Positions 47,677-61,552 of a DNA stretch of 64,000 nucleotides are shown in pieces. The position numbers and the translations under genes were made by a program. Every line of letters begins with the position of its first letter. Within the stretch, counting starts at the first letter, position 1. The stretch comes from a virus (taxonomy: Duplodnaviria > Caudoviricetes): positions 64,001 through 128,000 of the IMG/VR virus record IMGVR_UViG_3300033120_000574, one strand, 5' to 3'. The notes beneath the pieces were generated by a model, which saw only the letters and a program-made list of their open reading frames with translations, was not told the origin of the DNA and made no database searches.

Positions 47677-48479
47677 TAGCGTCTCCAAATAGGTAGCGCA
47701 GGAGCACTCTGTTTTTCCAACAGAGAACAGTGTGAACATGAGTTGTCCAAACTCTTATTCATATGTCCGCAAGCATTGCAGGACTTGTAGATCTGCACAT
47801 TAACTTGTTCTGGTGCAGCTGAAACGTTCACAACTGGACGACCGTTTCTAAATGCTTCGTACAAATGTGGTTCTTTTGCAGCTGCAATAGGTTCAACAGT
47901 AATTTGTTCCTCTCCAGAGGAGACTGTATCAGTTGCCACACTTATGGCTTTTCCAGACTTTGTGGACATCAAACGTGATGTCAGTGCTTTCAGGATTTCT
48001 TTTGGTGTGGACATATTTACTCCAGTGCGCGAACTAGGTCCTTGAATACTAGCAGATCGCTCATTTAAAAACAAGTGTTTGATTAGTTTACCATTACTTG
48101 CTTGCAGCTTAGCTTTAAATGCAAGCATAGTATACTGTTTGATACTTCCTAAAAACTTCGGATTGTTATAGTGCTTTAGGTAAGCAGCCTTGGCTTCTTG
48201 CTCAGAGTCGAAGCCAAGCATTACCTTCTGTTCATCTATTTCTACAAATTCAGGAGCTTTTAGCTGTGTGACTACAAAGACGTTCTCAGCATGCGGGCTT
48301 GGTCCCACATAAACATCTACTTCTTCTCCATCCGTTCCAAGGGTACCACATATGAATCCGTAGGGATTCTGCATGTAAGTAGTACCCTTAGTGTCTGAAA
48401 ATGGGTCGTACCAGTGTCGTTCTGTTCCTTGGTCAGTTTCGACACAAATACACAAGTCTTGATATGTAATATGTTTCAC
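47676..48479 (-). CDS. InPase (phage polyvalent-protein-type pyrophosphatase) domain protein
   Basis: GTG start at 48479; YGFI.GT.G.DGEEVDVYVGP...VFVV.Q...DEQKVMLGF.S...AK.AYL..Y; C-terminal CxxC..CxxC. Confidence 0.75.
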   Translation of the reverse strand: MKHITYQDLCICVETDQGTERHWYDPFSDTKGTTYMQNPYGFICGTLGTDGEEVDVYVGPSPHAENVFVVTQLKAPEFVEIDEQKVMLGFDSEQEAKAAYLKHYNNPKFLGSIKQYTMLAFKAKLQASNGKLIKHLFLNERSASIQGPSSRTGVNMSTPKEILKALTSRLMSTKSGKAISVATDTVSSGEEQITVEPIAAAKEPHLYEAFRNGRPVVNVSAAPEQVNVQIYKSCNACGHMNKSLDNSCSHCSLLEKQSAPALPIWRR

Positions 48480-51400
48480 TACACACCTCTGTAGAAATCC
48501 AACCAAGACTCGTCTTGGTCAAATGAGACTTCAAACGTTTTAGTGTCAATGGACTTGGTGAAACCATCTGAATAAGAGGGTTTTGAATTATCTTCAGCTA
48601 CTTGTGCTTCCGGTTTGTCTTTTCCTGGTTGTGCACTTGGTGGAGCTGTGCCACCACCAGCAGCTCCAGCAGCTCCGGCAGCAGCCTGCTGTTGCTCTAG
48701 TTGCCTACGTTGTTGTTGTGCTGTGGTGTATGTTGGGTTCAAGATCAAATCTCCATCAGCAACGTCAGGAAGGTCTTCTTGTCTACGAATCTCATTCAGG
48801 GTCATGTATGTTGATACTTGTTCCTTACGTAGTTCATGCTTTTCTTGCTCTGTGAGTTCATCAAGACCAACAAAATCAAACGTGAAATTGTCGTCCAACT
48901 TATTAACCACGTTGTCATTTATCAGCTTAGCAAGGAAGCGAAGCATTGGCTTAAGCCCACGATCACGAGATGCCTTTAGCTTCCATTCTTGGCTTGATTC
49001 GAATAGAGGTGTCTGCTGAACACCGCCATGCATGTCAAAGTTCAACTCTGCTGGATCGATCAAAAACACAGCACAGTTGTGTACAGCAAATCTGTGTGCT
49101 TGATATGTGTGTTCTCCGTCTACCTCTATGTTGTAAACCTTTCCTTCAAAATGGTTTGTGTGAGAAGAAGAGACGGGAACGTAATAATACGTAGCACTTT
49201 CATAAATGGTAGAACGCAGTGCAGTCAAACTACTCACTCTGTCACGTAACTTGTTACCCTTTGGCCCTCTCAACCAAGTAGCTAGTCTAGCGGAGTAGAC
49301 ACCATTAATATCTAAGCGGTGCAAGTCATTAACAGAATTGAAACCAGTGTTTGTTACAGTGTAACGATGGGAATACACATTTTGACGAAACAACAGGTGG
49401 CGAATCTGTTCTAGTGCTGTTTTTGACACAAGAGACAAAGTACTTACTGCAGCACCAGTGACGAAAGCAGGGACGGACCCGTCTCCTGCGAACACGCCGC
49501 TTATGAATGCACGTTGAACTTCTGTAGGAGCATCAAATAGCATCTTAGGAATCTTTTTCAATACAGCTTTTGAACCAAACAAATTTCCAAGAACATCAGC
49601 AACAAGAGAACTGTGCAAACAAATGTTAGCAGTGCTTTCTTTTGCTGCATAGGTACGAGAGTGTACTCCAATTCTAGTAGCTATGCGTTCAACAGCAGCT
49701 ACGTACTCTTCTTCATGTTTTGCAAAAGTAAAGTATGCTGCTGACTCGGTTGTATTTCCTTCAGCTAAATACAACCCAAGAACGTAAGCTAGCTCTTCAT
49801 CCAAAGCCCAATAACGTTGAATAAATTTTCCAGCATTTCCTTTAGGTGCAATATGCAAAGCATCAGGTGACACTCTGCAATTAGCGGCTCCCAATACGGC
49901 CAAACAATCGATTGTTTGGTCTTTTCCAACAAATTCATACGTCTTCTTTGGTATGGTTAAGTAGTCAACGCCTTCAACGATTTCTCCTGCGTTTTTCCAC
50001 GCAGGCTCACCAAATAGGCGAGAGCCGTTGTGCAAGGATGAGGAAACAACCCACATAGGATGTTCTGGAGTTACTTCGATGGTTTCTCCTGCTGTAAGGG
50101 TAACCAAAGGTCCACAGTATTCTGTGATCTGTAAGTTACTCACATTGCGTGGTTGACCTGTGTGAGAAAATACCACATCTCCAGGCACTACAGATTCTAT
50201 AGCTGTAGTCGACCCGTCTGCCATCGTGATTGGTGTATTACCAGTGAAGCAGGTAATCTTGATCAGGTATTCCATCCACATGGAGTACTCCATCTCTTGA
50301 TTACTTTGATGCAAAGGAACCCAGTCAATACCCTGCTCTGATTGCATGATGGGAGTACGCCAAGCGTTGGTGACGCCCTCTACATTGTTCTTCCACTCAC
50401 GTTTGAACACTTCTAACTGATCTCCAGTTAGATTGTCTCCCTTTATGTTCAAAATACCTTTCGGGGCTGAATTGGACGTTATACAGCCACCAGCGCTCCA
50501 CCTATGTCCCTCATGTGTTTGTCTGACATCAAACATAGGAACATGTACACCAATCACGTTAATGGATTTAATCTGAATCCATCGATAGTTTAGTGCCTCT
50601 TCTTGAGCAGAGGAGCGCAATGCTTTCAACTGTGACTTACTTCGTGTGCCACCAGGTACATACCCTATTAACCGTTGTAGTATTCCTTCTTGTGCAAAGC
50701 GAGGAATCTTACCACCAGAATCCTTTCGATTAGGAGAAACTGTTTTATATGTTTGTAGAAACCCAATCAGAGAAGCAAATTTGTTGTTTTCACAAACACG
50801 CAAATAGTGACAAGGTCTACCACTAGCATTCATCAAAGAATGAGACAAGCTACTAGATATACCAAGAGACCACAGCAACTGTTGTACGCCAGCAATAAGG
50901 TTAGTACTAGAGCTACACACATATGCGTGAATGCCATTCTTAACGAACCCATCAGCACTGAAGTATCCGCGTAGAAAAGCAGCTCTGTTTTCTACAGTTT
51001 CTGCAAATAAACGAGAAGGAACAACTTTCTCATGTGATGCGGAAGAAGACATCCCAACAACGTTTGTCAAGAAATCAAACAAGCCTTTGTTTCGTATAAC
51101 CAACGTATCAAGTTTAGTTCCTCCCCAATCACCACCACTTTTACGCATATGATGTGATATTCCACGAGAACCAAGCATAGTTCGAAACTTTTCTTGTACC
51201 TCTGTGTCTTTGGGAGAGAACACGCAGGATGTCGTGTAGTTTCTCTTATTTCCAGCATTTATCGAGCTACGTGTATCAGTTACGTACCCATCACCTACCA
51301 AAAATCCAATAAATTCGTAAAAAGGGGCATCTAACAACCCTGCGTTTACTGTAGGTTGTTTTGGTTTTTTACCTACCTGAACATAAACAGGGTCTAGTTC

Positions 51401-52615
51401 ATTGAATTCTAACAAGGCTTCACTTTGAGCTACAAAATCACCAACACGCAACTCTTGTAATTCCTTCATAACTGCTTGTCCATCACAAGACAAAGACAAG
51501 AACTTGTGATTTGGAGAGGTAATTAGACTGTAATTGTTAGCCAACCCTACGCTAACAGCCTCTTTGTGGCCAGATGACACTACGTCAGAGGTAACCCACT
51601 CAGTTCCATTCCAGCAATCAAATACCTTTCCAACCAGGGAAGAGATAGGAACCAGCCCATCACGGGTATGAACAGTAGTATCTCCTGCTACACAACCTTG
51701 CATGAAAAAGCGTCTGTTGTACTCTTCAGCGTACAAATGTGCAGTGATTACAGTGATTAGTTGTTCTAGCTCTCCATAACCATAACCTTGCACATAGATG
51801 TCAGACCTGGGGTTACGTACACCAAATACAAGTTCTTTGTTAGTGTATACGTTACGTTGCTGTCCATTGATTAACTGTACATATGCAGGGACATCATGAA
51901 GCTCTGGATTTTGAACCTTCATGGTCTTATAGGGCTGGGTCAAGGTCTCAGCATGTCCACGCATCAAAGCATTGGCAGTATGCGTGGCGTGTGCCAGGTC
52001 CATATCCATGTGGTTGGATGCAATACGGATTGTAGATGCATCTACAGCAAGAAATTCGTATGGCATTCCTTTACGGTCTGGAACCACTTCGAAAGTGGCT
52101 TGATCGTACATTAAGCTGTCACGAACAAGCTTCTTTAGGAAAGTTTCAAAGTCATCACGCACATATGGACTGTGTGGATTTGGGTCTTCAGCACCACAAG
52201 CATAGATGAACTTCTCTACAGACTGTATGAATTCACGTTCACCTTTAGTCGTTAGTCGTGCGGGGTTCTTGTGTTTAACAGCAAAGCCGAGAGATTTGTT
52301 CAAACGAAACGGTGTAGCAAACTGGGCTACTTGATTACATCTGGTTTGTAAAATAGCAGAGATGAGTGCTAGCTGCTGGGGAATGCGTTTAAGCGTTTCG
52401 TAAGACAACGAATAACGTCTGTCTTTGTAACCCATTGCAAACTGAATAGACAACGGGTCAAACACCAAAGACTTTGGACCTTTTGCAGCCAACTCTGGAT
52501 CTAGCTTAGATTTCCTGATTTCTTCGGAAACCATGGAAGGAATCATGTTTGTAGCATCTCTCCACTTGGAGACGTGCTCAACCCACTTGTCTTGGTCTTT
52601 GAATCTGTCACTCAT
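48479..52615 (-). CDS. portal protein containing two inteins (about 578 aa after splicing)
   Basis: LVRDSL.YDQ..FE, VDASTIR, RNPR.D....GYG..ELE, RFFMQG|SAPKGIL, S.DRGLKP.L, TLNE.R. Confidence 0.92.
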   Translation of the reverse strand: MSDRFKDQDKWVEHVSKWRDATNMIPSMVSEEIRKSKLDPELAAKGPKSLVFDPLSIQFAMGYKDRRYSLSYETLKRIPQQLALISAILQTRCNQVAQFATPFRLNKSLGFAVKHKNPARLTTKGEREFIQSVEKFIYACGAEDPNPHSPYVRDDFETFLKKLVRDSLMYDQATFEVVPDRKGMPYEFLAVDASTIRIASNHMDMDLAHATHTANALMRGHAETLTQPYKTMKVQNPELHDVPAYVQLINGQQRNVYTNKELVFGVRNPRSDIYVQGYGYGELEQLITVITAHLYAEEYNRRFFMQGCVAGDTTVHTRDGLVPISSLVGKVFDCWNGTEWVTSDVVSSGHKEAVSVGLANNYSLITSPNHKFLSLSCDGQAVMKELQELRVGDFVAQSEALLEFNELDPVYVQVGKKPKQPTVNAGLLDAPFYEFIGFLVGDGYVTDTRSSINAGNKRNYTTSCVFSPKDTEVQEKFRTMLGSRGISHHMRKSGGDWGGTKLDTLVIRNKGLFDFLTNVVGMSSSASHEKVVPSRLFAETVENRAAFLRGYFSADGFVKNGIHAYVCSSSTNLIAGVQQLLWSLGISSSLSHSLMNASGRPCHYLRVCENNKFASLIGFLQTYKTVSPNRKDSGGKIPRFAQEGILQRLIGYVPGGTRSKSQLKALRSSAQEEALNYRWIQIKSINVIGVHVPMFDVRQTHEGHRWSAGGCITSNSAPKGILNIKGDNLTGDQLEVFKREWKNNVEGVTNAWRTPIMQSEQGIDWVPLHQSNQEMEYSMWMEYLIKITCFTGNTPITMADGSTTAIESVVPGDVVFSHTGQPRNVSNLQITEYCGPLVTLTAGETIEVTPEHPMWVVSSSLHNGSRLFGEPAWKNAGEIVEGVDYLTIPKKTYEFVGKDQTIDCLAVLGAANCRVSPDALHIAPKGNAGKFIQRYWALDEELAYVLGLYLAEGNTTESAAYFTFAKHEEEYVAAVERIATRIGVHSRTYAAKESTANICLHSSLVADVLGNLFGSKAVLKKIPKMLFDAPTEVQRAFISGVFAGDGSVPAFVTGAAVSTLSLVSKTALEQIRHLLFRQNVYSHRYTVTNTGFNSVNDLHRLDINGVYSARLATWLRGPKGNKLRDRVSSLTALRSTIYESATYYYVPVSSSHTNHFEGKVYNIEVDGEHTYQAHRFAVHNCAVFLIDPAELNFDMHGGVQQTPLFESSQEWKLKASRDRGLKPMLRFLAKLINDNVVNKLDDNFTFDFVGLDELTEQEKHELRKEQVSTYMTLNEIRRQEDLPDVADGDLILNPTYTTAQQQRRQLEQQQAAAGAAGAAGGGTAPPSAQPGKDKPEAQVAEDNSKPSYSDGFTKSIDTKTFEVSFDQDESWLDFYRGV
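49076..50251 (-). mobile_element. intein 2 in portal (392 aa) with LAGLIDADG endonuclease
   Basis: Begins CFTGNT; block B TPEHP; LGLYLAEG and ISGVFAGDG; ends VHN|C. Confidence 0.92.
50471..51694 (-). mobile_element. intein 1 in portal (408 aa) with LAGLIDADG endonuclease
   Basis: Begins CVAGDT; block B SPNHKF; IGFLVGDG and LRGYFSADG; ends TSN|S. Confidence 0.9.
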
Positions 52616-55524: not shown

Positions 55525-55724
55525 TTGCTTCTTACTCTTTTCTTTATGGAGTCTCGTGAACTTAAGGAACGATTATGCATCCTCCTGGCCTCAACCTGTG
55601 CTCTGTGTTCTTTAAGAAACGATTCCTGTGCTTGTTTACAGTTACATGCAACCAACGTTGCAGAGTCAGCTGCTGGAAGCAAAGTCAGTGCTTCTCCACA
55701 GAATTTACACTTGTAAGAAATCAT
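55521..55724 (-). CDS. small zinc-ribbon protein
   Basis: CKFCG...ACNC. Confidence 0.55.
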   Translation of the reverse strand: MISYKCKFCGEALTLLPAADSATLVACNCKQAQESFLKEHRAQVEARRMHNRSLSSRDSIKKRVRSK

Positions 55725-56020
55725 GCTTTCCTGTGAATGGTCAGTGGTCCAACGTTCCTAGGCTTTCCAAAGGTAGCTTTGGTTAGAAATATCAAGTTAT
55801 TTATTGGTGCATGTTTCGGCAGCTTCAAACTCAAATGAAAGATTTTACCTATCTCTACAGTGTCCTTGAGTGATAGAACGACTTCGTTGTTTAAAAACAC
55901 CAAACCAGCTTGTAAGTATCTCTTACTTTCACGAATACTAGTACACATACCAGACAGGTCTAGTACTCTGTAAATTTCTGCATGAGTTGCAGTTCTGCTA
56001 GGCCAAGCCACGTATAGCAT
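55721..56020 (-). CDS. S4-like RNA-binding domain protein
   Basis: L...GMCTSIRESKRYLQAGLVFLNNEVV matches the S4 pattern; ATG at 56020. Confidence 0.65.
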   Translation of the reverse strand: MLYVAWPSRTATHAEIYRVLDLSGMCTSIRESKRYLQAGLVFLNNEVVLSLKDTVEIGKIFHLSLKLPKHAPINNLIFLTKATFGKPRNVGPLTIHRKA

Positions 56021-56026
56021 AGTGTG

Positions 56027-56035
56027 AGTATAGCA
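56027..56035 (-). promoter_or_regulatory. extended -10 promoter (possible leaderless mRNA)
   Basis: TG-C-TATACT 6 nt upstream of the ATG at 56020; no SD. Confidence 0.45.
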
Positions 56036-56036
56036 C

Positions 56037-56070
56037 AAACAGAAATACCCACGAATGTTATTCGTGGGTT
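56037..56070 (-). terminator. terminator of the tRNA operon
   Basis: ACCCACGAA-TAACA-TTCGTGGGT followed by ATTTCTGTTT. Confidence 0.65.
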
Positions 56071-56088
56071 ACTTTTGTGAGTTAGTAG

Positions 56089-56160
56089 TTTCCAGTGAAG
56101 GACTCGAACCTTCACAGACTTCTTCAGAGGAAGTTGACCTGCCAATTAGTCGAACCGGAA
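56089..56160 (-). tRNA. tRNA-Gln(CTG)
   Basis: ACTTC-CT-CTG-AA-GAAGT anticodon arm; GGTTCGAGTCC T arm. Confidence 0.85.
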
Positions 56161-56175
56161 ATATAATAATCTCGA

Positions 56176-56246
56176 AGCCCCGGACGAGAATCGAACTCAT
56201 GTCTCTCGCTTACAAGACGAGGGTACTGCCATTGTACTAACAGGGC
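56176..56246 (-). tRNA. tRNA-Thr(TGT)
   Basis: CTCGT-CT-TGT-AA-GCGAG. Confidence 0.85.
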
Positions 56247-56250
56247 AAAG

Positions 56251-56318
56251 AGGGTCTAGTGAGAATCGAACTCACCAACAATGTTTTGCAGACATCGGTC
56301 AAACCATTTGTTAGACCC
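56251..56318 (-). tRNA. tRNA-Cys(GCA), reduced D arm
   Basis: GATGT-CT-GCA-AA-ACATT; U73. Confidence 0.75.
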
Positions 56319-56324
56319 AAAAAT

Positions 56325-56398
56325 TGGAGCGTCTTGCGGGGATCAAACCCGCGCCGAGAGTTTGGAAAACTCCTATGCTATCGCTACACCAAAGACGC
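56325..56398 (-). tRNA. tRNA-Gly(TCC)
   Basis: GGAGT-TT-TCC-AA-ACTCT; encoded CCA. Confidence 0.8.
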
Positions 56399-56402
56399 AA
56401 AG

Positions 56403-56474
56403 TACCTTGTAGGAGAGTTGAACTCCTCTTACCCGATTGAAAGTCGAGAGTCCTTTCCGATAGACGAACAAGGC
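56403..56474 (-). tRNA. tRNA-Glu(TTC)
   Basis: CTCGA-CT-TTC-AA-TCGGG. Confidence 0.85.
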
Positions 56475-56477
56475 ATA

Positions 56478-56549
56478 TGACCCTATTGGGAATCTAACCC
56501 AACTTACCTAGTTGAGAACCAGGCTTCTTGAACACTAGAAGATAGGGCC
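56478..56549 (-). tRNA. tRNA-Glu(CTC)
   Basis: CCTGG-TT-CTC-AA-CTAGG; atypical T loop TTAGATT. Confidence 0.7.
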
Positions 56550-56550
56550 G

Positions 56551-56992
56551 TGGCACGTGTACGAGATGCTTTCAAAGGGCACCCACATTATGTACACATT
56601 TTTAAGAACCATGTAGCGATTGTAGTAAGTTTGGAGTCTGCTACATCTGTTGCTTTAACCCACAACAGGGATAGTAACATTCCTTATACACAACTGTGTC
56701 CTCACGACAACCTTTTAAAAACTACGTAGCAGACCCATGCGAAGCAGGGATTTACACCCTTGCAGCGTCACCGCGAACTTCTACACATACCTTAAGTTAT
56801 ATGTGCTGCGTCTTTTCAAAAACTACTTGGCGATATACTAACTGCTTTGTGTAGTTTTACCTACGCCATCTGCCTCGCACGACACCGCGAGTGTTCCTGT
56901 ATATCTTTAAAGAACCAATTTTGAGCACACAAGCAGTCAAATATATCGAGGTCTCACGCCCAACTTTGACAACCGCAAGGTTTTTAAGAACT
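56551..56992 (-). ncRNA. tandem array of 4-5 acceptor-stem-like small RNAs
   Basis: Each unit follows a GTTYTT(T)RAA leader; four close with a 7-12 bp terminal helix plus G-CCA or G-CTA; no cloverleaf. Confidence 0.55.
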
Positions 56993-56994
56993 CA

Positions 56995-57080
56995 CGAAGA
57001 GCTGAATACTCGAAATCCACACCCTTTTGAGGTGCCATCTGTTTAGCAAACAGTGCTAGTTCCTAACTAGTTAACTCTTC
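56995..57080 (-). tRNA. tRNA-Ser(GCT), 8/4 fold
   Basis: CTGT-TT-GCT-AA-ACAG; long variable arm; 8 bp acceptor and 4 bp T stem. Confidence 0.8.
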
Positions 57081-57108
57081 ATTTTAAGAACCACCAACAA
57101 CGTTGGTA

Positions 57109-57195
57109 TGGAGAACAGACGAATCGAACGCCACACCCTTTTGAGGTGCCCACTCACTTCCAATGAGGTCCAGTCCCAGACATGGTTTACTCTCC
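57109..57195 (-). tRNA. tRNA-Ser(GGA), 8/4 fold
   Basis: CTCA-TT-GGA-AG-TGAG; long variable arm. Confidence 0.75.
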
Positions 57196-57198
57196 AAA

Positions 57199-57284
57199 CG
57201 GTAGATAGAGGTATCGCGCCCCACACCCGAAAGGGTGCACACTGGTTTCAAAGCAGGTTCGGAGGCTTCTCCGATTTATCTACC
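57199..57284 (-). tRNA. tRNA-Ser(TGA), 8/4 fold
   Basis: TT-TGA-AA loop; GGTAGATA/TATCTACC acceptor; 6 bp D stem. Confidence 0.7.
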
Positions 57285-57286
57285 AA

Positions 57287-57829
57287 TCAACTTTCATCTA
57301 CCGCAAGATTCCAGTACAAGTAATCTTTCCACTCTTTTGGAGAGTTTGATAGACTTACCATGACTTTCTTCTTAGGAGACCAATCCGGTTTCGTAGGAAC
57401 ACTGTGCAGGCGCATCTTAGCCTCTGCAGGAGTCCTATCCGCCTTCTTACTGTTGCAAGTCAAGCAAGACGTTGTGATGTTGTCCCACACTGTCTTACCA
57501 CCCTTAGAGCGGGGCAAAACGTGGTCATACGTCAACTTGCTCATAGTGAATGGCTTGTTGCAGTACTGACAAGTGTAGTTGTCTCTTGCGAAGACATTCA
57601 TCCTAGAGAACTTGATTTTCTCTTTCTTAGGCTTTACATAGGTTGTCAACCTAAGTACAGCAGGACAACACATAGTGTGATTTGCACTCTTTAGTTCAAA
57701 ATCAGGGTATTCCTCTATTATGTCAACTTTCTTCTCAAACCAAAGAACTATGGCTCTTTGCCAAGTAAGAATCTTCATTGGCTCGTACGTAGCGTTCAGT
57801 AACAAGACTTTATGTTCTTCAGCTAGCAT
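57287..57829 (-). CDS. HNH endonuclease (McrA-like)
   Basis: VLLLNATYEP, RD.YTCQYC, T.DHVLPRSKGG..VWDN...C..CN..K. Confidence 0.9.
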   Translation of the reverse strand: MLAEEHKVLLLNATYEPMKILTWQRAIVLWFEKKVDIIEEYPDFELKSANHTMCCPAVLRLTTYVKPKKEKIKFSRMNVFARDNYTCQYCNKPFTMSKLTYDHVLPRSKGGKTVWDNITTSCLTCNSKKADRTPAEAKMRLHSVPTKPDWSPKKKVMVSLSNSPKEWKDYLYWNLAVDES

Positions 57830-57832
57830 AAA

Positions 57833-57905
57833 TCCACCTGGAGGGAGTTGAACCCACTCATGTCCGCTTATAAGACGGATGCCTAAACCGTTTGGCTTCA
57901 GGTGG
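57833..57905 (-). tRNA. tRNA-Ile(TAT)
   Basis: TCCGT-CT-TAT-AA-GCGGA. Confidence 0.8.
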
Positions 57906-57908
57906 GTA

Positions 57909-57978
57909 TATCAGCATCGAGAATCGAACTCGAACGTTGAAGCGTATGAAACCTAACGACTAGCCACAGTATGCTGAT
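57909..57978 (-). tRNA. tRNA with CAT anticodon (Met or Ile2), reduced D arm
   Basis: ATCAGCA/TGCTGAT acceptor; AGGT-TT-CAT-AC-GCTT. Confidence 0.6.
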
Positions 57979-58003
57979 ATGCAGAGAACCTGCAAGGGAA
58001 AAT

Positions 58004-58077
58004 TGGGAGCGATCGCCGGAGTTGAACACGGTCCTGAAGCTTATGAGACTTCGGTGCAGCCCTTACACCACCACGCC
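58004..58077 (-). tRNA. tRNA-Met(CAT), weak acceptor and T stems
   Basis: GAAGT-CT-CAT-AA-GCTTC; encoded CCA. Confidence 0.6.
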
Positions 58078-58078
58078 A

Positions 58079-58121
58079 TGTCCTAGGAGGGATTCGAACC
58101 CTCATGCTTTCGCTACACCAA
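58079..58121 (-). pseudogene. 3' half of a disrupted tRNA-Leu
   Basis: Variable arm GC-GAAA-GC, T arm GAGGG-TTCGAAT-CCCTC, acceptor strand CTAGGAC-A; no anticodon loop. Confidence 0.7.
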
Positions 58122-58149
58122 GTAAAGGACAACCAAAACAAGTATGCTA

Positions 58150-58234
58150 TAGAAACGAAGAGATTTGAACTCTTATGCACCTCACAGTGCGTTTGCGTTT
58201 GAAGCAAATGTGTAAACCATTCCACCACGTTTCC
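58150..58234 (-). tRNA. tRNA-Leu(CAA)
   Basis: TTTGC-TT-CAA-AC-GCAAA; long variable arm. Confidence 0.85.
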
Positions 58235-58244
58235 AAATAAATTT

Positions 58245-58673
58245 ATGCGAAAAAAGTATTCAAGGTACACTAAAGAGCAACTAGAACCTCTTGTTAAAGA
58301 GAGCAAATCCTATGCGGAAGTTATAAAGAAACTAGGTCTTAGGATTTGTGGAGGTAACTACGTGCTCCTACAAAGAAATATAGACAAGTTTCAAATCAGC
58401 TGTGAACATATGCTATTCCAAGCAGCGAACCAAGGAAGAGAATTTGTAAAATATGAAGAAATTTCGACGCACGCAGCTATAAAGAAACGTATTCTACGAG
58501 AACGAGGACTTGTCTGTGAGGGGTGTAATTTAGACACCTGGTTAGGTAAGCCTATTACCTTAGAGATGGATCATATAGATGGGGACAACAGGAACAACAC
58601 AAAAACAAACATAAGAATTTTGTGTCCAAATTGTCACAGTCAAACTCCAACTTGGAAGAACAACAAGAAGTAA
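58245..58673 (+). CDS. HNH endonuclease, antisense to the tRNA operon
   Basis: CEGC...LEMDHIDGDNRNN...NIRILCPNCHSQT. Confidence 0.9.
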   Translation: MRKKYSRYTKEQLEPLVKESKSYAEVIKKLGLRICGGNYVLLQRNIDKFQISCEHMLFQAANQGREFVKYEEISTHAAIKKRILRERGLVCEGCNLDTWLGKPITLEMDHIDGDNRNNTKTNIRILCPNCHSQTPTWKNNKK

Positions 58674-58695
58674 GTACCAGTTCCACCACACGGAC
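58674..58695 (-). pseudogene. 5' half of a disrupted tRNA-Leu
   Basis: GTCCGTG-TGGTGGAACTGGTAC (Leu-type D arm) abutting the HNH stop codon. Confidence 0.65.
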
Positions 58696-58783
58696 ATTCA
58701 AAATTGGTTGCCAGTTTAACTGTTACGTAAAGCACTTCTAGCAAGAAGCTTAGATTTATATTGTCACCCTAATCCAAGGGTGT

Positions 58784-58863
58784 TGCAGTTGGAGAGATTC
58801 GAACTCTCATACCGAAGCGGGAAATCTTAAAGATCCTGTGTATGCCAATTCCACCACAACTGC
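58784..58863 (-). tRNA. tRNA-Leu(TAA)
   Basis: TT-TAA-GA loop, Leu-type D arm; weak anticodon stem. Confidence 0.75.
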
Positions 58864-58877
58864 ATTTAGTTTATCAA

Positions 58878-58961
58878 TGACACAGGTGAGAGTCGAACTC
58901 ACAAGAGGAATTACCCACAACAGTTTCTAAGACTGCCCGCTCGCCGTTGGCGTACTGTGCC
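58878..58961 (-). tRNA. tRNA-Leu(TAG)
   Basis: GCAGT-CT-TAG-AA-ACTGT. Confidence 0.85.
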
Positions 58962-58966
58962 GTAAA

Positions 58967-59038
58967 TACCAGATTAGGGAATCGAACCCAACTATATCAC
59001 TGTGTAAAAGTGGTGCCTACCCAGTCAGCTTATCTGGC
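58967..59038 (-). tRNA. tRNA-Val(TAC)
   Basis: CACT-TT-TAC-AC-AGTG. Confidence 0.8.
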
Positions 59039-59043
59039 ATACT

Positions 59044-59115
59044 CGTTGTTGAAGAGAATCGAACTCTTATTTAAACTTTAGGAAAGTCTTGCTCTATCCG
59101 TTGAACTACAACAAC
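59044..59115 (-). tRNA. tRNA-Arg(CCT)
   Basis: AGACT-TT-CCT-AA-AGTTT. Confidence 0.85.
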
Positions 59116-59118
59116 AGA

Positions 59119-59143
59119 CGCTTTTGTTTGGACTTGAACCTAC
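59119..59143 (-). pseudogene. 3' end of a disrupted tRNA-Arg
   Basis: GG-TTCAAGT-CCAAA-CAAAAGC-G; acceptor strand pairs 7/7 with GCTTTTG at 59814-59820. Confidence 0.75.
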
Positions 59144-59146
59144 CAC

Positions 59147-59175
59147 TTGACGCCAAATCAAAATTGAATTATACC
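59147..59175 (+). promoter_or_regulatory. candidate promoter for the antisense HNH gene
   Basis: TTGACG-17 nt-TATACC. Confidence 0.4.
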
Positions 59176-59249
59176 GTCCTTGGTAGGAATCGAACCTACA
59201 AAATTGCTTGTTTAGAAGACAAGTGTTCTATCCGTTGAACTACAAGGAC
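59175..59249 (-). tRNA. tRNA-Arg(TCT)
   Basis: CTTGT-CT-TCT-AA-ACAAG. Confidence 0.88.
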
Positions 59250-59253
59250 AAAA

Positions 59254-59793
59254 ATGATATCAGTAACATGTGAAAACTGTAGCAAAGAATTCTTCAAGAA
59301 TAAGTCTGAAGCTGCTCGGAGCCCTAGACACTTTTGTAGCAGGTCTTGTGCAAATAGCAAGCACAACACCGAGAAAGCAAAACGAAGTAAGAAGCAAAGA
59401 ACATGTACTCTATGTACAAAGAGTTACATACAAACAAAAGCGAGACGCAAGATATGTGAAGTTTGTTTTGTTCCACCACTCTGTAAAGATAACATGACAC
59501 TCAGTCAGTGTAAGGACAAATTAAGTGTTCAAGGCAAGCACCCATCATGGTACACTGTGCACGTAAGAGGACATAATAGAACGAAGAATAAAAAGCTAGC
59601 TACTAGCTGCCAGAAATGTGGGTACAGTAAACATGTAGAGTGTTGTCATATCAAACCAGTCGCAAGTTTTGAAGGCAATGCAACGTTGGCTGAAATTAAT
59701 CATGTGGACAATATTGTTGTTTTATGTAGAAATTGTCACTGGGAGTTTGACCACAATCAACTAAGCATAGTAGATATTCCAAAGCGTAAGTAA
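59254..59793 (+). CDS. HNH endonuclease with N-terminal zinc fingers, antisense to the tRNA operon
   Basis: CENC...FCSRSC; CQKCGY...ECCHIKP...N..DN.VVLCRNCHWEFD. Confidence 0.9.
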   Translation: MISVTCENCSKEFFKNKSEAARSPRHFCSRSCANSKHNTEKAKRSKKQRTCTLCTKSYIQTKARRKICEVCFVPPLCKDNMTLSQCKDKLSVQGKHPSWYTVHVRGHNRTKNKKLATSCQKCGYSKHVECCHIKPVASFEGNATLAEINHVDNIVVLCRNCHWEFDHNQLSIVDIPKRK

Positions 59794-59795
59794 TT

Positions 59796-59820
59796 ACGCT
59801 ATCCTTTGTGCTACAAAAGC
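59796..59820 (-). pseudogene. 5' half of a disrupted tRNA-Arg
   Basis: GCTTTTG-TAGCACAAAGGATAGCGT (Arg-type D loop GGATA), next to the HNH stop codon. Confidence 0.75.
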
Positions 59821-59823
59821 AAG

Positions 59824-59896
59824 CCTAGGTAGAGGGATTTGAACCCCTCATTTCACGGTTCGTAGCCGCGCGTGGTATCCGTTACACTATACCTAG
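59824..59896 (-). tRNA. tRNA-Arg(ACG)
   Basis: CGCGG-CT-ACG-AA-CCGTG. Confidence 0.85.
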
Positions 59897-59899
59897 ATA

Positions 59900-59971
59900 A
59901 GCCGCCACAGGTACTTGAAACCTGTTTTCCTCCATACCAAGGAGGTACATCACCATATATGTTTTAGCGGC
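59900..59971 (-). tRNA. tRNA-Thr(GGT)
   Basis: CCTCC-TT-GGT-AT-GGAGG. Confidence 0.8.
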
Positions 59972-59974
59972 ACA

Positions 59975-60047
59975 TGGACAAGACTGGACTCGAACCAGCG
60001 GTCTTCTGAGTGCAAGTCAGAGGTTTTCCCAACTAAACTACTCGCCC
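59975..60047 (-). tRNA. tRNA-Ala(TGC)
   Basis: TCTGA-CT-TGC-AC-TCAGA; G3:U70 present. Confidence 0.88.
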
Positions 60048-60054
60048 AATTAAA

Positions 60055-60172
60055 ACTGACGAAATTGTTACCATTACAACACATTGCCACTGCAGTGAAT
60101 TCAAGACTAATCAAGCAAAATTACGCCCATAGTCTTAACAATGCTGGGAATCGAACCCAGGTCTTCGTACTT
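60055..60172 (-). ncRNA. circularly permuted tRNA-like RNA (YrlA/Y-RNA-like)
   Basis: Order is T arm, internally closed acceptor-like stem, D arm; the termini ACGAAG and TTTCGT pair. Confidence 0.6.
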
Positions 60173-60173
60173 C

Positions 60174-60241
60174 CACGTTATATAGGAATCGAACCTATGA
60201 TGAAAAGTTTTGGAGGCTTCTCTGTGCCCAGCACCTAACGT
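60174..60241 (-). tRNA. tRNA-Trp(CCA), reduced D arm
   Basis: CT-CCA-AA loop; D arm GTGC-TGG-GCAC; G73. Confidence 0.7.
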
Positions 60242-60259
60242 ATACAAGCTAAGATAAGA

Positions 60260-60331
60260 AGTGACTGACGGGAATTGAACCCGCTAATACCTGATTCACA
60301 ATCAAGCGCTTGGCCATTTAGCTTCAGCCAC
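60260..60331 (-). tRNA. tRNA-His(GTG)
   Basis: CTTGA-TT-GTG-AA-TCAGG. Confidence 0.85.
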
Positions 60332-60332
60332 A

Positions 60333-60403
60333 CGCTCCATAGGGGAATCGAACCCCTCTCAACTTGGAGACAACAAGTCCGCAACCCAGTTGCGCAATGG
60401 AGC
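60333..60403 (-). tRNA. tRNA-Asp(GTC)
   Basis: ACTTG-TT-GTC-TC-CAAGT; G73. Confidence 0.8.
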
Positions 60404-60458
60404 AGGCACGGCATCTTACTTTTTTGGGGTGCGTCAGCTAGCCGTAATCGACCCACAG

Positions 60459-60531
60459 TGCCATCGACTGGACTCGAACCAGCATTTATGTCCGGTTAAA
60501 AGCCGGGTACCAACCTTTAGGTGACGATGGC
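60459..60531 (-). tRNA. tRNA-Lys(TTT)
   Basis: CCGG-CT-TTT-AA-CCGG. Confidence 0.85.
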
Positions 60532-60534
60532 AAA

Positions 60535-60609
60535 TCCAAGCAGAAGGAATCGAACCTGTCAATCTCTCGCTTATCAGGCAAGCGTATATAACCACTATAC
60601 TATGCTTGG
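60535..60609 (-). tRNA. tRNA-Ile(GAT)
   Basis: CTTGC-CT-GAT-AA-GCGAG. Confidence 0.85.
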
Positions 60610-60614
60610 GTTAG

Positions 60615-60686
60615 TCCAGCTAAGAAGATTCGAACTTCTATTGTCCTGTACCCAAAACAGGTGGGTTACCGTTACCCTATAGCTAG
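60615..60686 (-). tRNA. tRNA-Pro(TGG)
   Basis: CCTGT-TT-TGG-GT-ACAGG; C1-G72. Confidence 0.85.
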
Positions 60687-60692
60687 ATGAAA

Positions 60693-60777
60693 TGCCCCAT
60701 GGAAGGAATCGAACCTCACAGCCTAACGGCACGTGGTTTACAGCCACGGGGATGTTCCAACATCCGGATCACAGGAC
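60693..60777 (-). tRNA. tRNA-Tyr(GTA), atypical fold
   Basis: CGTGG-CT-GTA-AA-CCACG; extended D stem GGATGTT/AACATCC. Confidence 0.7.
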
Positions 60778-60781
60778 AAAG

Positions 60782-60854
60782 TGCAACCTACTGGAATCGA
60801 ACCAATTTGTCTTGTTCTTCAGACAAGCGCATTAACCATAATTGCTTAGGTTGC
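60782..60854 (-). tRNA. tRNA-Phe(GAA)
   Basis: CTTGT-CT-GAA-GA-ACAAG. Confidence 0.85.
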
Positions 60855-60859
60855 ATTGA

Positions 60860-60934
60860 CTGGGACGGCAGGAGTCGAACCTGCAATCACTATATTAACA
60901 GTATAGCCGTCGCGCCGATATGACGAACATCCCA
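60860..60934 (-). tRNA. tRNA-Asn(GTT)
   Basis: CTATA-CT-GTT-AA-TATAG; G73. Confidence 0.85.
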
Positions 60935-60951
60935 ATAATCTAACTCTTATT

Positions 60952-60965
60952 CAGTTTTCAAAAAG
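60952..60965 (-). promoter_or_regulatory. rrn boxA-like antitermination motif
   Basis: CTTTTTGAAAACTG resembles the TCTTTGAAAAC boxA of many rRNA leaders. Confidence 0.45.
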
Positions 60966-61041
60966 TTTCCAGGGTAGGATTCGAACCTACGACCATCAGT
61001 TTCAAAGACTGAGTACACGTGCCAGCAGCGTAGACCTGGAA
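60966..61041 (-). tRNA. tRNA-Gln(TTG)
   Basis: TCAGT-CT-TTG-AA-ACTGA. Confidence 0.8.
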
Positions 61042-61042
61042 G

Positions 61043-61115
61043 TGGTAACGAAGGGAATCGAACCCTCTATGGCTTGCTTAAGAGGCAAGTGCTTATCCAG
61101 TTTAGCTTCGTTACC
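61043..61115 (-). tRNA. tRNA-Lys(CTT)
   Basis: CTTGC-CT-CTT-AA-GCAAG. Confidence 0.88.
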
Positions 61116-61144
61116 AAGAAGTAAGAGAACATCTTACTTCGGAT

Positions 61145-61173
61145 ATGCTATCACTTATCTTTTTCGTTGTCAA
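61145..61173 (-). promoter_or_regulatory. sigma70-type promoter of the tRNA operon
   Basis: TTGACA-17 nt-TAGCAT with extended TG, about 30 nt upstream of the first tRNA. Confidence 0.7.
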
Positions 61174-61552
61174 GAGAAATCGTAGCTAGGCGCTTTCTAG
61201 TATTCTCTATTCGCTTTGCTAGCCTGGAGTAGCCTAGTATGACTACTTTTGGCAGACCTGAGTCTTTTGTCAAGGCCAATTTGTCGGAGACAACACGAAG
61301 CATGTCAGGTACACGTGTAAACGAAGGCTCAGCTAAGAAGATGCAGGCTGCTGCCAACTCACCACTCAAAGCATCCACCAAGTTCTCCAGTTCGTCAAGG
61401 TCAGGATTCTCTTTTGTTGTCATCCCGGTATCTGCAAACATCTGGTGTAATGCTTGTGCAAACGCAACTGCGTCAGCTGCATACTCCAAAGCTTCCTTAC
61501 TTGGAGAAGATGACTCTAGAGACTCTATGATCTTGGAATAATTATCACTCAT
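61151..61552 (-). CDS. hypothetical helical protein
   Basis: 133 aa, ATGA-coupled to the RHH gene. Confidence 0.65.
   Translation of the reverse strand: MSDNYSKIIESLESSSPSKEALEYAADAVAFAQALHQMFADTGMTTKENPDLDELENLVDALSGELAAACIFLAEPSFTRVPDMLRVVSDKLALTKDSGLPKVVILGYSRLAKRIENTRKRLATISLDNEKDK

Follow-up and report, generated by a model that had tools for sequence, protein, structure and literature searches.

What does a phage tRNA operon encode in a gap of 440 nt that holds no tRNA gene? The window considered here, a stretch of 64,000 nt that corresponds to bases 64001-128000 of a 139-kb IMG/VR phage contig (completeness estimated at 82%), carries on its minus strand a tRNA operon in which 25 tRNAs were called by ARAGORN and three class II tRNA-Ser genes were missed by it. 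The gap is located between tRNA-Ser(GCT) and tRNA-Glu(CTC), and the spacers between the other tRNAs of the operon are just 2-4 nt long. The major capsid protein of the phage is 42-47% identical to the capsid proteins of SPO1/CP-51-like Bacillus phages. An earlier note, made from the nucleotide sequence without database searches, had divided the gap into tandem units with related leaders and had suggested that these units are small RNAs of an unrecognised family, released by tRNA processing. The reading preferred here, held tentatively at a probability of about 0.45, is that the units may be co-transcribed modules which the tRNA-processing machinery excises into small RNAs, and which derive in part from a dead mini RNase P RNA gene.

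The features of the locus are compiled in Table 1. The predicted operon promoter is the sole strong promoter-like site on the operon strand; the remaining promoter-like sites are weaker (9-10 of 12 matches) and about as numerous as expected by chance. The operon is predicted to end at an intrinsic terminator just past the last tRNA, and neither a terminator-like site ahead of this end nor a promoter-like site in or near the array was found on the minus strand. From position, strand and the flanking promoter and terminator, we infer that the array units lie inside one transcription unit and are co-transcribed with the tRNA cluster. No credible ORF was found in the gap, the ORFs there (25-59 aa) being scattered over both strands. 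Regarding the tRNAs themselves, CCA is encoded in one of the 28 operon tRNAs only (Gly-TCC). The geometry of the three tRNA-Ser genes appears unusual, since ARAGORN misses all of them and the lone Rfam match among them is to tRNA-Sec (20.8 bits), on the GGA gene.

Two HNH endonuclease genes are located inside the operon, one of them immediately ahead of the three Ser tRNAs and the array. In T-even phages, homing endonucleases are reported to drive the amplification of segments of tRNA regions (PMC13096335), and such an amplification could have built the array.

Table 1. Features of the tRNA operon, its array and the related element (positions in the window unless another locus is named).
Feature	Position	Strand	Description
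Operon promoter, sigma-70-like	61145..61173	minus	Predicted; TTGACA-17-TAGCAT with TG, 10/12 matches
Weaker boxA-like string CTTTTTGAAAACT	60951-60963	minus	In the 29-nt spacer after tRNA-Gln(TTG)
HNH endonuclease gene	59254-59793	plus	Inside operon
tRNA with anticodon TTA	58782-58864	minus	Called by ARAGORN
HNH endonuclease gene	57287-57829	minus	Inside operon
tRNA-Ser(TGA)	57285-57199	minus	Class II; anticodon by inspection
tRNA-Ser(GGA)	57195-57110	minus	Class II; anticodon by inspection
Leader 1, GGTTCTTAAAA	57082..57092	minus	Ends 1 nt before tRNA-Ser(GCT)
tRNA-Ser(GCT)	56995..57080	minus	Class II; anticodon by inspection; without encoded CCA; orthologue in L021 46.8 bits, tRNA-Sec/Ser-like
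Leader 2, AGTTCTTAAAAA	56981..56992	minus	Motif scan
U1	56917..56980	minus	Weak unit; internal hairpins only
Leader 3, GGTTCTTTAAA	56906..56916	minus	Best boxA-consensus match
U2 (78 nt)	56828..56905	minus	Closing helix GATATAC/GTATATC, then G-CCA; fold and shuffles
Leader 4, AGTTTTTGAAA	56814..56824	minus	Aligns with P1 5' strand of relatives' mini RNase P RNA
U3 (87 nt)	56727..56813	minus	P2-like closing helix AGACGCA/TGGGTCT, then G-CTA
Leader 5, AGTTTTTAAAA	56713..56723	minus	Motif scan
U4 (99 nt)	56614..56712	minus	12-position closing helix, three-way junction, G-CTA
Leader 6, GGTTCTTAAAA	56600..56610	minus	Motif scan
U5 (49 nt)	56551..56599	minus	Minihelix; 8-bp closing helix stacked on 6-bp hairpin, G-CCA
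Inter-unit helix A (13 bp)	56882-56870 (U2) with 56747-56735 (U3)	minus	
Inter-unit helix B (13 bp)	56736-56724 (U3 3' end and tail) with 56646-56634 (U4 interior)	minus	
Intrinsic terminator	56047..56069	minus	Predicted; ends operon
S4-domain protein gene	55721-56038	minus	PF01479, E 9e-6
Portal ORF (1378 aa)	48479-52615	minus	
Peptide deformylase gene	L021:881-1468		PF01327, E 9e-41
Mini RNase P RNA element	L021:1565-1799 (G003)		One independent sequence together with the copy below
Mini RNase P RNA element	L022:1274-1508 (G001)	minus	

The tandem organisation described in the earlier note was recovered. The pattern RGTTYTTNAAA occurs in six same-strand copies within 57092-56600, among 12 in the whole 139-kb genome, and the first of the six does stand immediately before tRNA-Ser(GCT), as had been claimed. 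The shorter pattern GTTYTTNAAA gave 10 matches in the window versus 2.6 expected, a number reached in none of 100 shuffles; six of these matches are on the minus strand between 57091 and 56600. Acceptor-like closures followed by G-CYA had been seen in four units, and these were found again in U2-U5: the closing helix forms 7 of 7 pairs in U2, 6 of 7 in U3 (with a G.G mismatch), 11 of 12 in U4 and 8 of 8 in U5, and its 3' strand is followed directly by GCCA (U2 and U5) or GCTA (U3 and U4). Folded alone, each of these four units closes with its own terminal helix in the MFE structure. A terminal helix of at least 7 bp in at least four of five segments was obtained with a frequency of 0.003 in mononucleotide shuffles. 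When seven positions are anchored in tRNA-Ser(GCT) and in U2-U5, 33 of the 35 cells pair (by inspection). The closing helices differ wholly in sequence between the units, their register to leader and tail being constant, which amounts to covariation among paralogous or analogous units. The fold z-scores of the single units are modest (-0.7 to -2.4, with U4 the best at -2.4).

U1, which had been called weaker from the start, has neither a terminal helix (p 0.47) nor GCYA; its 3' part pairs without interruption with the interior of U2 over 10 positions (56940-56931/56847-56838), or, by inspection, over about 12 if a bulge is allowed. At the other end of the array, U5 stops 1 nt ahead of tRNA-Glu(CTC). 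The string TCGCGGTGWCG that had been reported as common to two units is indeed present in U2 and U3 and belongs to a block of 19 nt, TCGCGGTGWCG(C)TGCRAGG (p 0.003), and U1, U4 and U5 showed no significant similarity to anything they were compared with. In a cmscan search with lax filters and a query of 461 nt, neither tRNA nor any other Rfam family matched a unit at E<10; a tRNA cmscan of 56551-56994 was equally without a match at E<10, and thus detected no cloverleaf, ARAGORN called no tRNA in the gap, and U2-U5 have neither a T loop nor an anticodon arm. The view that the units are not tRNAs is therefore upheld.

Under the preferred reading, the gap would encode four or five short, structured non-tRNA modules within the phage tRNA precursor. 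Each module would consist of an 11-nt single-stranded U/A-rich leader, a helix that starts right after it and a G-C-Y-A tail on the 3' strand. Host RNase P would cut at the junction of leader and helix, and G-C-Y may pair with GGU of the RNase P L15 loop through Watson-Crick or wobble pairs; this pairing, which is our own proposal, would rationalise both the GCCA and the GCTA tails. The 3' side would be trimmed by RNase Z or 3' exonucleases, or by RNase E/Y acting in the AU-rich leader, and these cuts would release RNAs of 49-99 nt. The determinants published for bacterial RNase P substrates are a 3' RCC that pairs with L15 GGU, an unpaired leader and a stem, and the enzyme also processes non-tRNA RNAs with a stem and 3' RCCA, among them the P1/P7 C4 RNA and pre-4.5S RNA (PMC10731613). 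The array presents a pattern of the C4/4.5S type, with a stem and G-CCA in U2 and U5, a stem and G-CTA in U3 and U4, and A/U-rich leaders, which show no complementarity to the unit tails. Excision is favoured because the array fits these substrate determinants and the C4 and 4.5S precedents; against it stands the nucleotide N(-1), which is A and not the preferred U. Co-transcription, cleavage sites and product stability are all deduced from sequence features. By analogy with T4 RNA C/D and P1 C4 RNA, we lean towards regarding the released RNAs as tRNA-end-tagged small RNAs, in which tRNA-like ends would serve excision and stabilisation. The earlier proposal of small RNAs released by tRNA processing is thus kept in so far as the RNase P substrate features and the single predicted transcription unit agree with it, and is weakened by helices between units that compete with the unit closures.

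Small non-tRNA RNAs in phage tRNA clusters have been known since T4, in which RNA C and RNA D measure about 120-140 nt, and their function has never been explained. These two RNAs (species I and II) are the classical case of small RNAs that are encoded among phage tRNA genes and whose function is not known (PMC2330249, PMC9697503). Like them, the array would encode non-tRNA RNAs inside a phage tRNA gene cluster; it differs by showing no sequence similarity to them (blastn, 50,697 phage records) and by comprising four or five units with a repeated leader, compared with two RNAs in T4. With C4 RNA and pre-4.5S RNA the array shares the stem, the 3' RCCA and the single-stranded leader, as predicted from its sequence, whereas two of its tails are RCUA. 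C4 RNA also has antisense targets in its own operon, whereas the search for antisense targets of the units across the phage genome gave only chance-level 11-14-mers. Regarding tRNA-like minihelices and t-elements (plant mitochondria, mascRNA-type), the likeness consists in an acceptor-type stem, a discriminator base and CCA as a processing handle, and U5 with its 49 nt has the geometry of a minihelix (8 + 6 bp); the array differs by the absence of a T-loop motif and by the non-tRNA interiors of U2-U4 with three-way junctions. With its repeated leader, acceptor-like closure and RCYA tail, the locus is an unusually explicit version of the non-tRNA RNAs of phage tRNA clusters. If the units are excised and stable, they would represent a modular phage route to small RNAs via the tRNA-processing machinery.

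The leaders resemble boxA, and a somewhat unlikely alternative makes them the functional part of the locus. The 11-mers would bind NusB-S10 and the units would merely keep these sites single-stranded; the array would then equip RNA polymerase with a Nus antitermination/chaperone complex while the untranslated operon is transcribed, or titrate host NusB-S10. The published boxA sequences are UGCUCUUUAACA in E. coli and AUGAUCUUUGAAA in B. subtilis (PMC13753749). Leader 3 is an exact match to G-N-UCUUU-R-AA and the other leaders are one or two bases off, this consensus being that of other organisms, from which that of the host may differ. Leader 1 directly follows a 6-bp hairpin (about 57093-57108), an arrangement also seen in the rrn leaders of B. 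subtilis, and a weaker copy of the motif follows the second tRNA of the operon. The array recalls the boxA of rrn operons and lambda nut sites in having an 11-mer near the consensus, downstream of a helix, in a long untranslated operon. That an 11-nt motif has been kept between otherwise unrelated units suggests a sequence-specific binder, and the leader is in this respect a candidate protein-binding motif. A small gene for an S4-domain RNA-binding protein directly follows the operon terminator; its product is a possible partner of the operon RNAs or of a Nus-type complex.

What this alternative leaves unexplained are the GCYA tails and the start of each helix exactly at the end of the leader. 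Six tandem copies in the middle of an operon, each abutting an acceptor-stem-like helix, set the array apart from the boxA of rrn operons and lambda nut sites, and their number, together with the lack of RGTTYTTNAAA in the operon leader, would be unusual for antitermination; in addition, leader 4 is homologous to a P1 strand of RNase P RNA (see below). RGTTCTT precedes tRNA-Ser(GCT) in related phages too. The leader may serve as a site for Nus factors or for a nuclease, may be an optimal unstructured leader for RNase P, or may have been inherited through duplication. A likeness between the leader and B. subtilis RNase P RNA at its 5' end was considered and set aside, as a string search of the literature gave no match.

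The preferred reading treats the units as separate modules. They may not be independent, since two 13-bp helices link U2 to U3 and U3 to U4 (helices A and B). Both are uninterrupted; one such helix was found in 5% of dinucleotide shuffles and a second in 0 of 300. Helices A and B engage the 3' strand and the tail of U3. When the entire precursor is treated as an ensemble, they displace the closures of U2, U3 and U4, whose probabilities are about 0-0.06, and only the helices of U5 (probability 0.73-0.96) and tRNA-Ser survive. The interior of U4 contains ATGTAGC, which is complementary to the GCTAC(R)T tails of both U3 and U4, and these tails may therefore not be free CCA-like ends. The inter-unit helices would imply folding and cutting during transcription before the partners appear, or one composite RNA, or released RNAs that pair with one another.

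The second of these options would be a single multi-domain fold of about 450 nt held together by inter-unit helices, in which the repeated leader only creates the appearance of 'units'. It is consistent with the low shuffle frequencies of the two helices, with further complementarity between U1 and U2 (10-12 bp) and between U4 and U5 (10 bp), and with the MFE fold of the precursor, which uses inter-unit helices. It is judged unlikely: the fold z-score of the whole region is only -1.1, the U1-U2 helix and helix A cross, and duplex energies show no consistent excess between adjacent units. Identity with one known long ncRNA, which the earlier note had listed among the findings that would count against separate units, was not indicated either, as no Rfam match to large phage RNAs such as ROOL and GOLLD was obtained.

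The origin of part of the array is indicated by related phages. Relatives were collected by a search with the capsid protein, and the tRNA region is present in only three of them, G001, G002 and G003. In G002, tRNA-Ser is followed by tRNA-Glu with nothing in between. The other two, of which G001 is a complete contig of 169 kb with terminal repeats, share an identical element of about 235 nt located after tRNA-Ser(GCT) and before tRNA-Glu(CTC). In cmscan this element aligned end to end with the class A RNase P RNA model RF00010 (32 bits, E 2e-8; gathering score 100). A hairpin is all that is left of its specificity domain, and the element has no P18. By inspection, it keeps P1, P2, P3, P5, P15/P16, L15 CGGGU, CR-I, CR-IV, J18/2 and CR-V, and a P4 of 8 pairs with the canonical bulged U, both strands of which carry CG-to-GC swaps relative to the consensus and are still complementary. 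From this single independent sequence, which scores below the gathering score, the element is read as a phage-encoded miniature RNase P RNA. This intact element arguably matters more than the array, as it suggests that a phage can supply a tRNA-processing ribozyme of its own. A peptide deformylase gene lies inside the tRNA operon of the relatives, just upstream of tRNA-Ser(GCT).

Leader 4 and the first approximately 60 nt of U3 are colinear with positions 1-69 of this element, comprising the P1 5' strand, the P2 5' strand, the P3 hairpin, CR-I and CUGC, and the core block shared by U3 and the relatives is significant against shuffles (p<0.003). CR-I was sought as an GAGGAAAGUCC-like string after the P3 hairpin, and U3 has GTAGAAGTTCGCGG after its P3-like hairpin, the CR-I motif in its interior being GAAGTTCGCGG (56781-56771). 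U2 contains the CR-I-like AGGAACACTCGCGG and a hairpin CTCGC/GCGAG, and P3 is absent from it. The 19-nt block that it shares with U3 is preceded by AGGAA in U2, which makes U2 a paralogue of the U3 region that lacks P3. The likeness to the class A or mini form of RF00010 therefore comprises P1(5')-P2-P3-CR-I in leader 4 and U3, and AGGAA...TCGCGG in U2. Leader 4 with U3, and the paralogue U2, are remnants of a mini RNase P RNA gene that fills this slot in related phages, and the closing helix of U3 is the former P2. The family, which the earlier note did not recognise, has no Rfam match and is nevertheless not wholly unrecognisable, since U3 and U2 trace to the gene seen in the relatives. Through these remnants the locus is linked in evolution to a miniature RNase P RNA carried by phages.

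The array differs from RF00010 by what is missing from it. A P4 3' strand (YYGYGR-YTT) pairing with either CR-I copy is absent throughout 55900-61300; ACARAAY has two matches there (at about 59471 and 58623), both of them outside the array and neither with a complement to CR-I. The sole J18/2-like match, AGGAATG at about 56685 in U4, is in an unusable position, and CR-V and P15/L15 are absent from the array. With the P4 3' strand, J18/2 and CR-V lost, the units cannot be catalytic. Rfam models detected no RNase P RNA in the window or the operon, and a custom covariance model (R1) built from the relatives gave 1.6 bits on U3 and found nothing either in the window or in loci totalling 671 kb; the search of the genomes with RF00010 recovered not even the element of the relatives. 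A circularly permuted or fragmented RNase P RNA, to which U2 would contribute a CR-V-like and U4 a J18/2-like motif, was considered and rejected because the motif in U2 is paralogous to the CR-I-GCRAGG stretch of U3 and because of the lack of a P4 3' strand.

The earlier note had also proposed collecting homologous arrays from related phages. The array had no match among 50,697 phage records, whether searched by megablast or by blastn. Used as queries for related loci, the neighbouring protein of 495 aa yielded nothing, a phosphoesterase yielded only one more locus (L178, with a truncated operon), and the HNH protein yielded 80 unrelated phage loci, the element being present in none. The pattern of the CR-I block had 64 matches in viral contigs, real in G001 and G003 only, and in metagenome contigs only G001 was found; a triple-leader pattern had 18 matches, all of them simple tandem or coding repeats without tRNAs. 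No homologous array was thus found in the phage, viral-contig or metagenome collections, and covariation is consequently testable only among paralogues.

These results bear on a further reading, in which the array stems from a mini RNase P RNA gene that broke up and was duplicated in part, the remainder of the gap being functionless, drifting spacer. The incomplete set of RNase P features, with no P4 3' strand anywhere in the operon, would agree with such decay, as would the empty slot of the close relative G002 and the restriction of the array to this genome among the collections searched. We consider it distinctly unlikely that decay accounts for the array as a whole, given that the closing helices differ and nevertheless stay complementary and in register with leader and GCYA, that the leaders are strongly conserved between unrelated unit interiors, and that 440 nt of junk would be unusual in an operon with such short tRNA spacers.

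The opposite possibility, that the array is a working system into which the phage turned its mini RNase P RNA gene, is improbable. The gene would have become a processed set of RNAs that keep the CR-I/P2-P3 face or the RCCA-ended ends of pseudo-substrates. Such RNAs might engage host RNase P at its protein or L15 loop, or might use the six boxA-like leaders to engage NusB-S10, and the 13-bp inter-unit helices might allow them to assemble into larger complexes with each other. Were this so, the maturation of host tRNA and rRNA, or host transcription, would be redirected toward the phage.

The earlier note had further suggested that the RNAs may act as decoys which absorb host toxins that act on tRNA 3' ends (toxSAS, MenT, GNAT). 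The acceptor-like helix with G-CCA in U2 and U5 would suit this role, and phage tRNA clusters generally counter tRNA-targeting defences (PMC13096335). The proposal is nevertheless highly improbable, as two of the four tails are CTA rather than CCA and could be engaged in pairing, the surroundings showed no toxin, antitoxin or defence context, and turnover enzymes are poorly titrated by decoys. Decayed ordinary tRNA genes, which the lengths of 78-99 nt (like those of class II tRNAs), the discriminator G (like that of the neighbouring tRNA-Ser) and the location in tRNA slots might suggest, are rejected in view of the missing tRNA-model match, T loop and anticodon arm and of the lack of significant similarity to tRNA-Ser(GCT).

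Two observations concern other genes of the window. One of the operon tRNAs called by ARAGORN has the anticodon TTA and is of the ochre-suppressor type. In the portal ORF, portal matches are limited to the two ends and the middle is endonuclease/helicase-like, which suggests that the ORF carries a large insertion such as an intein.
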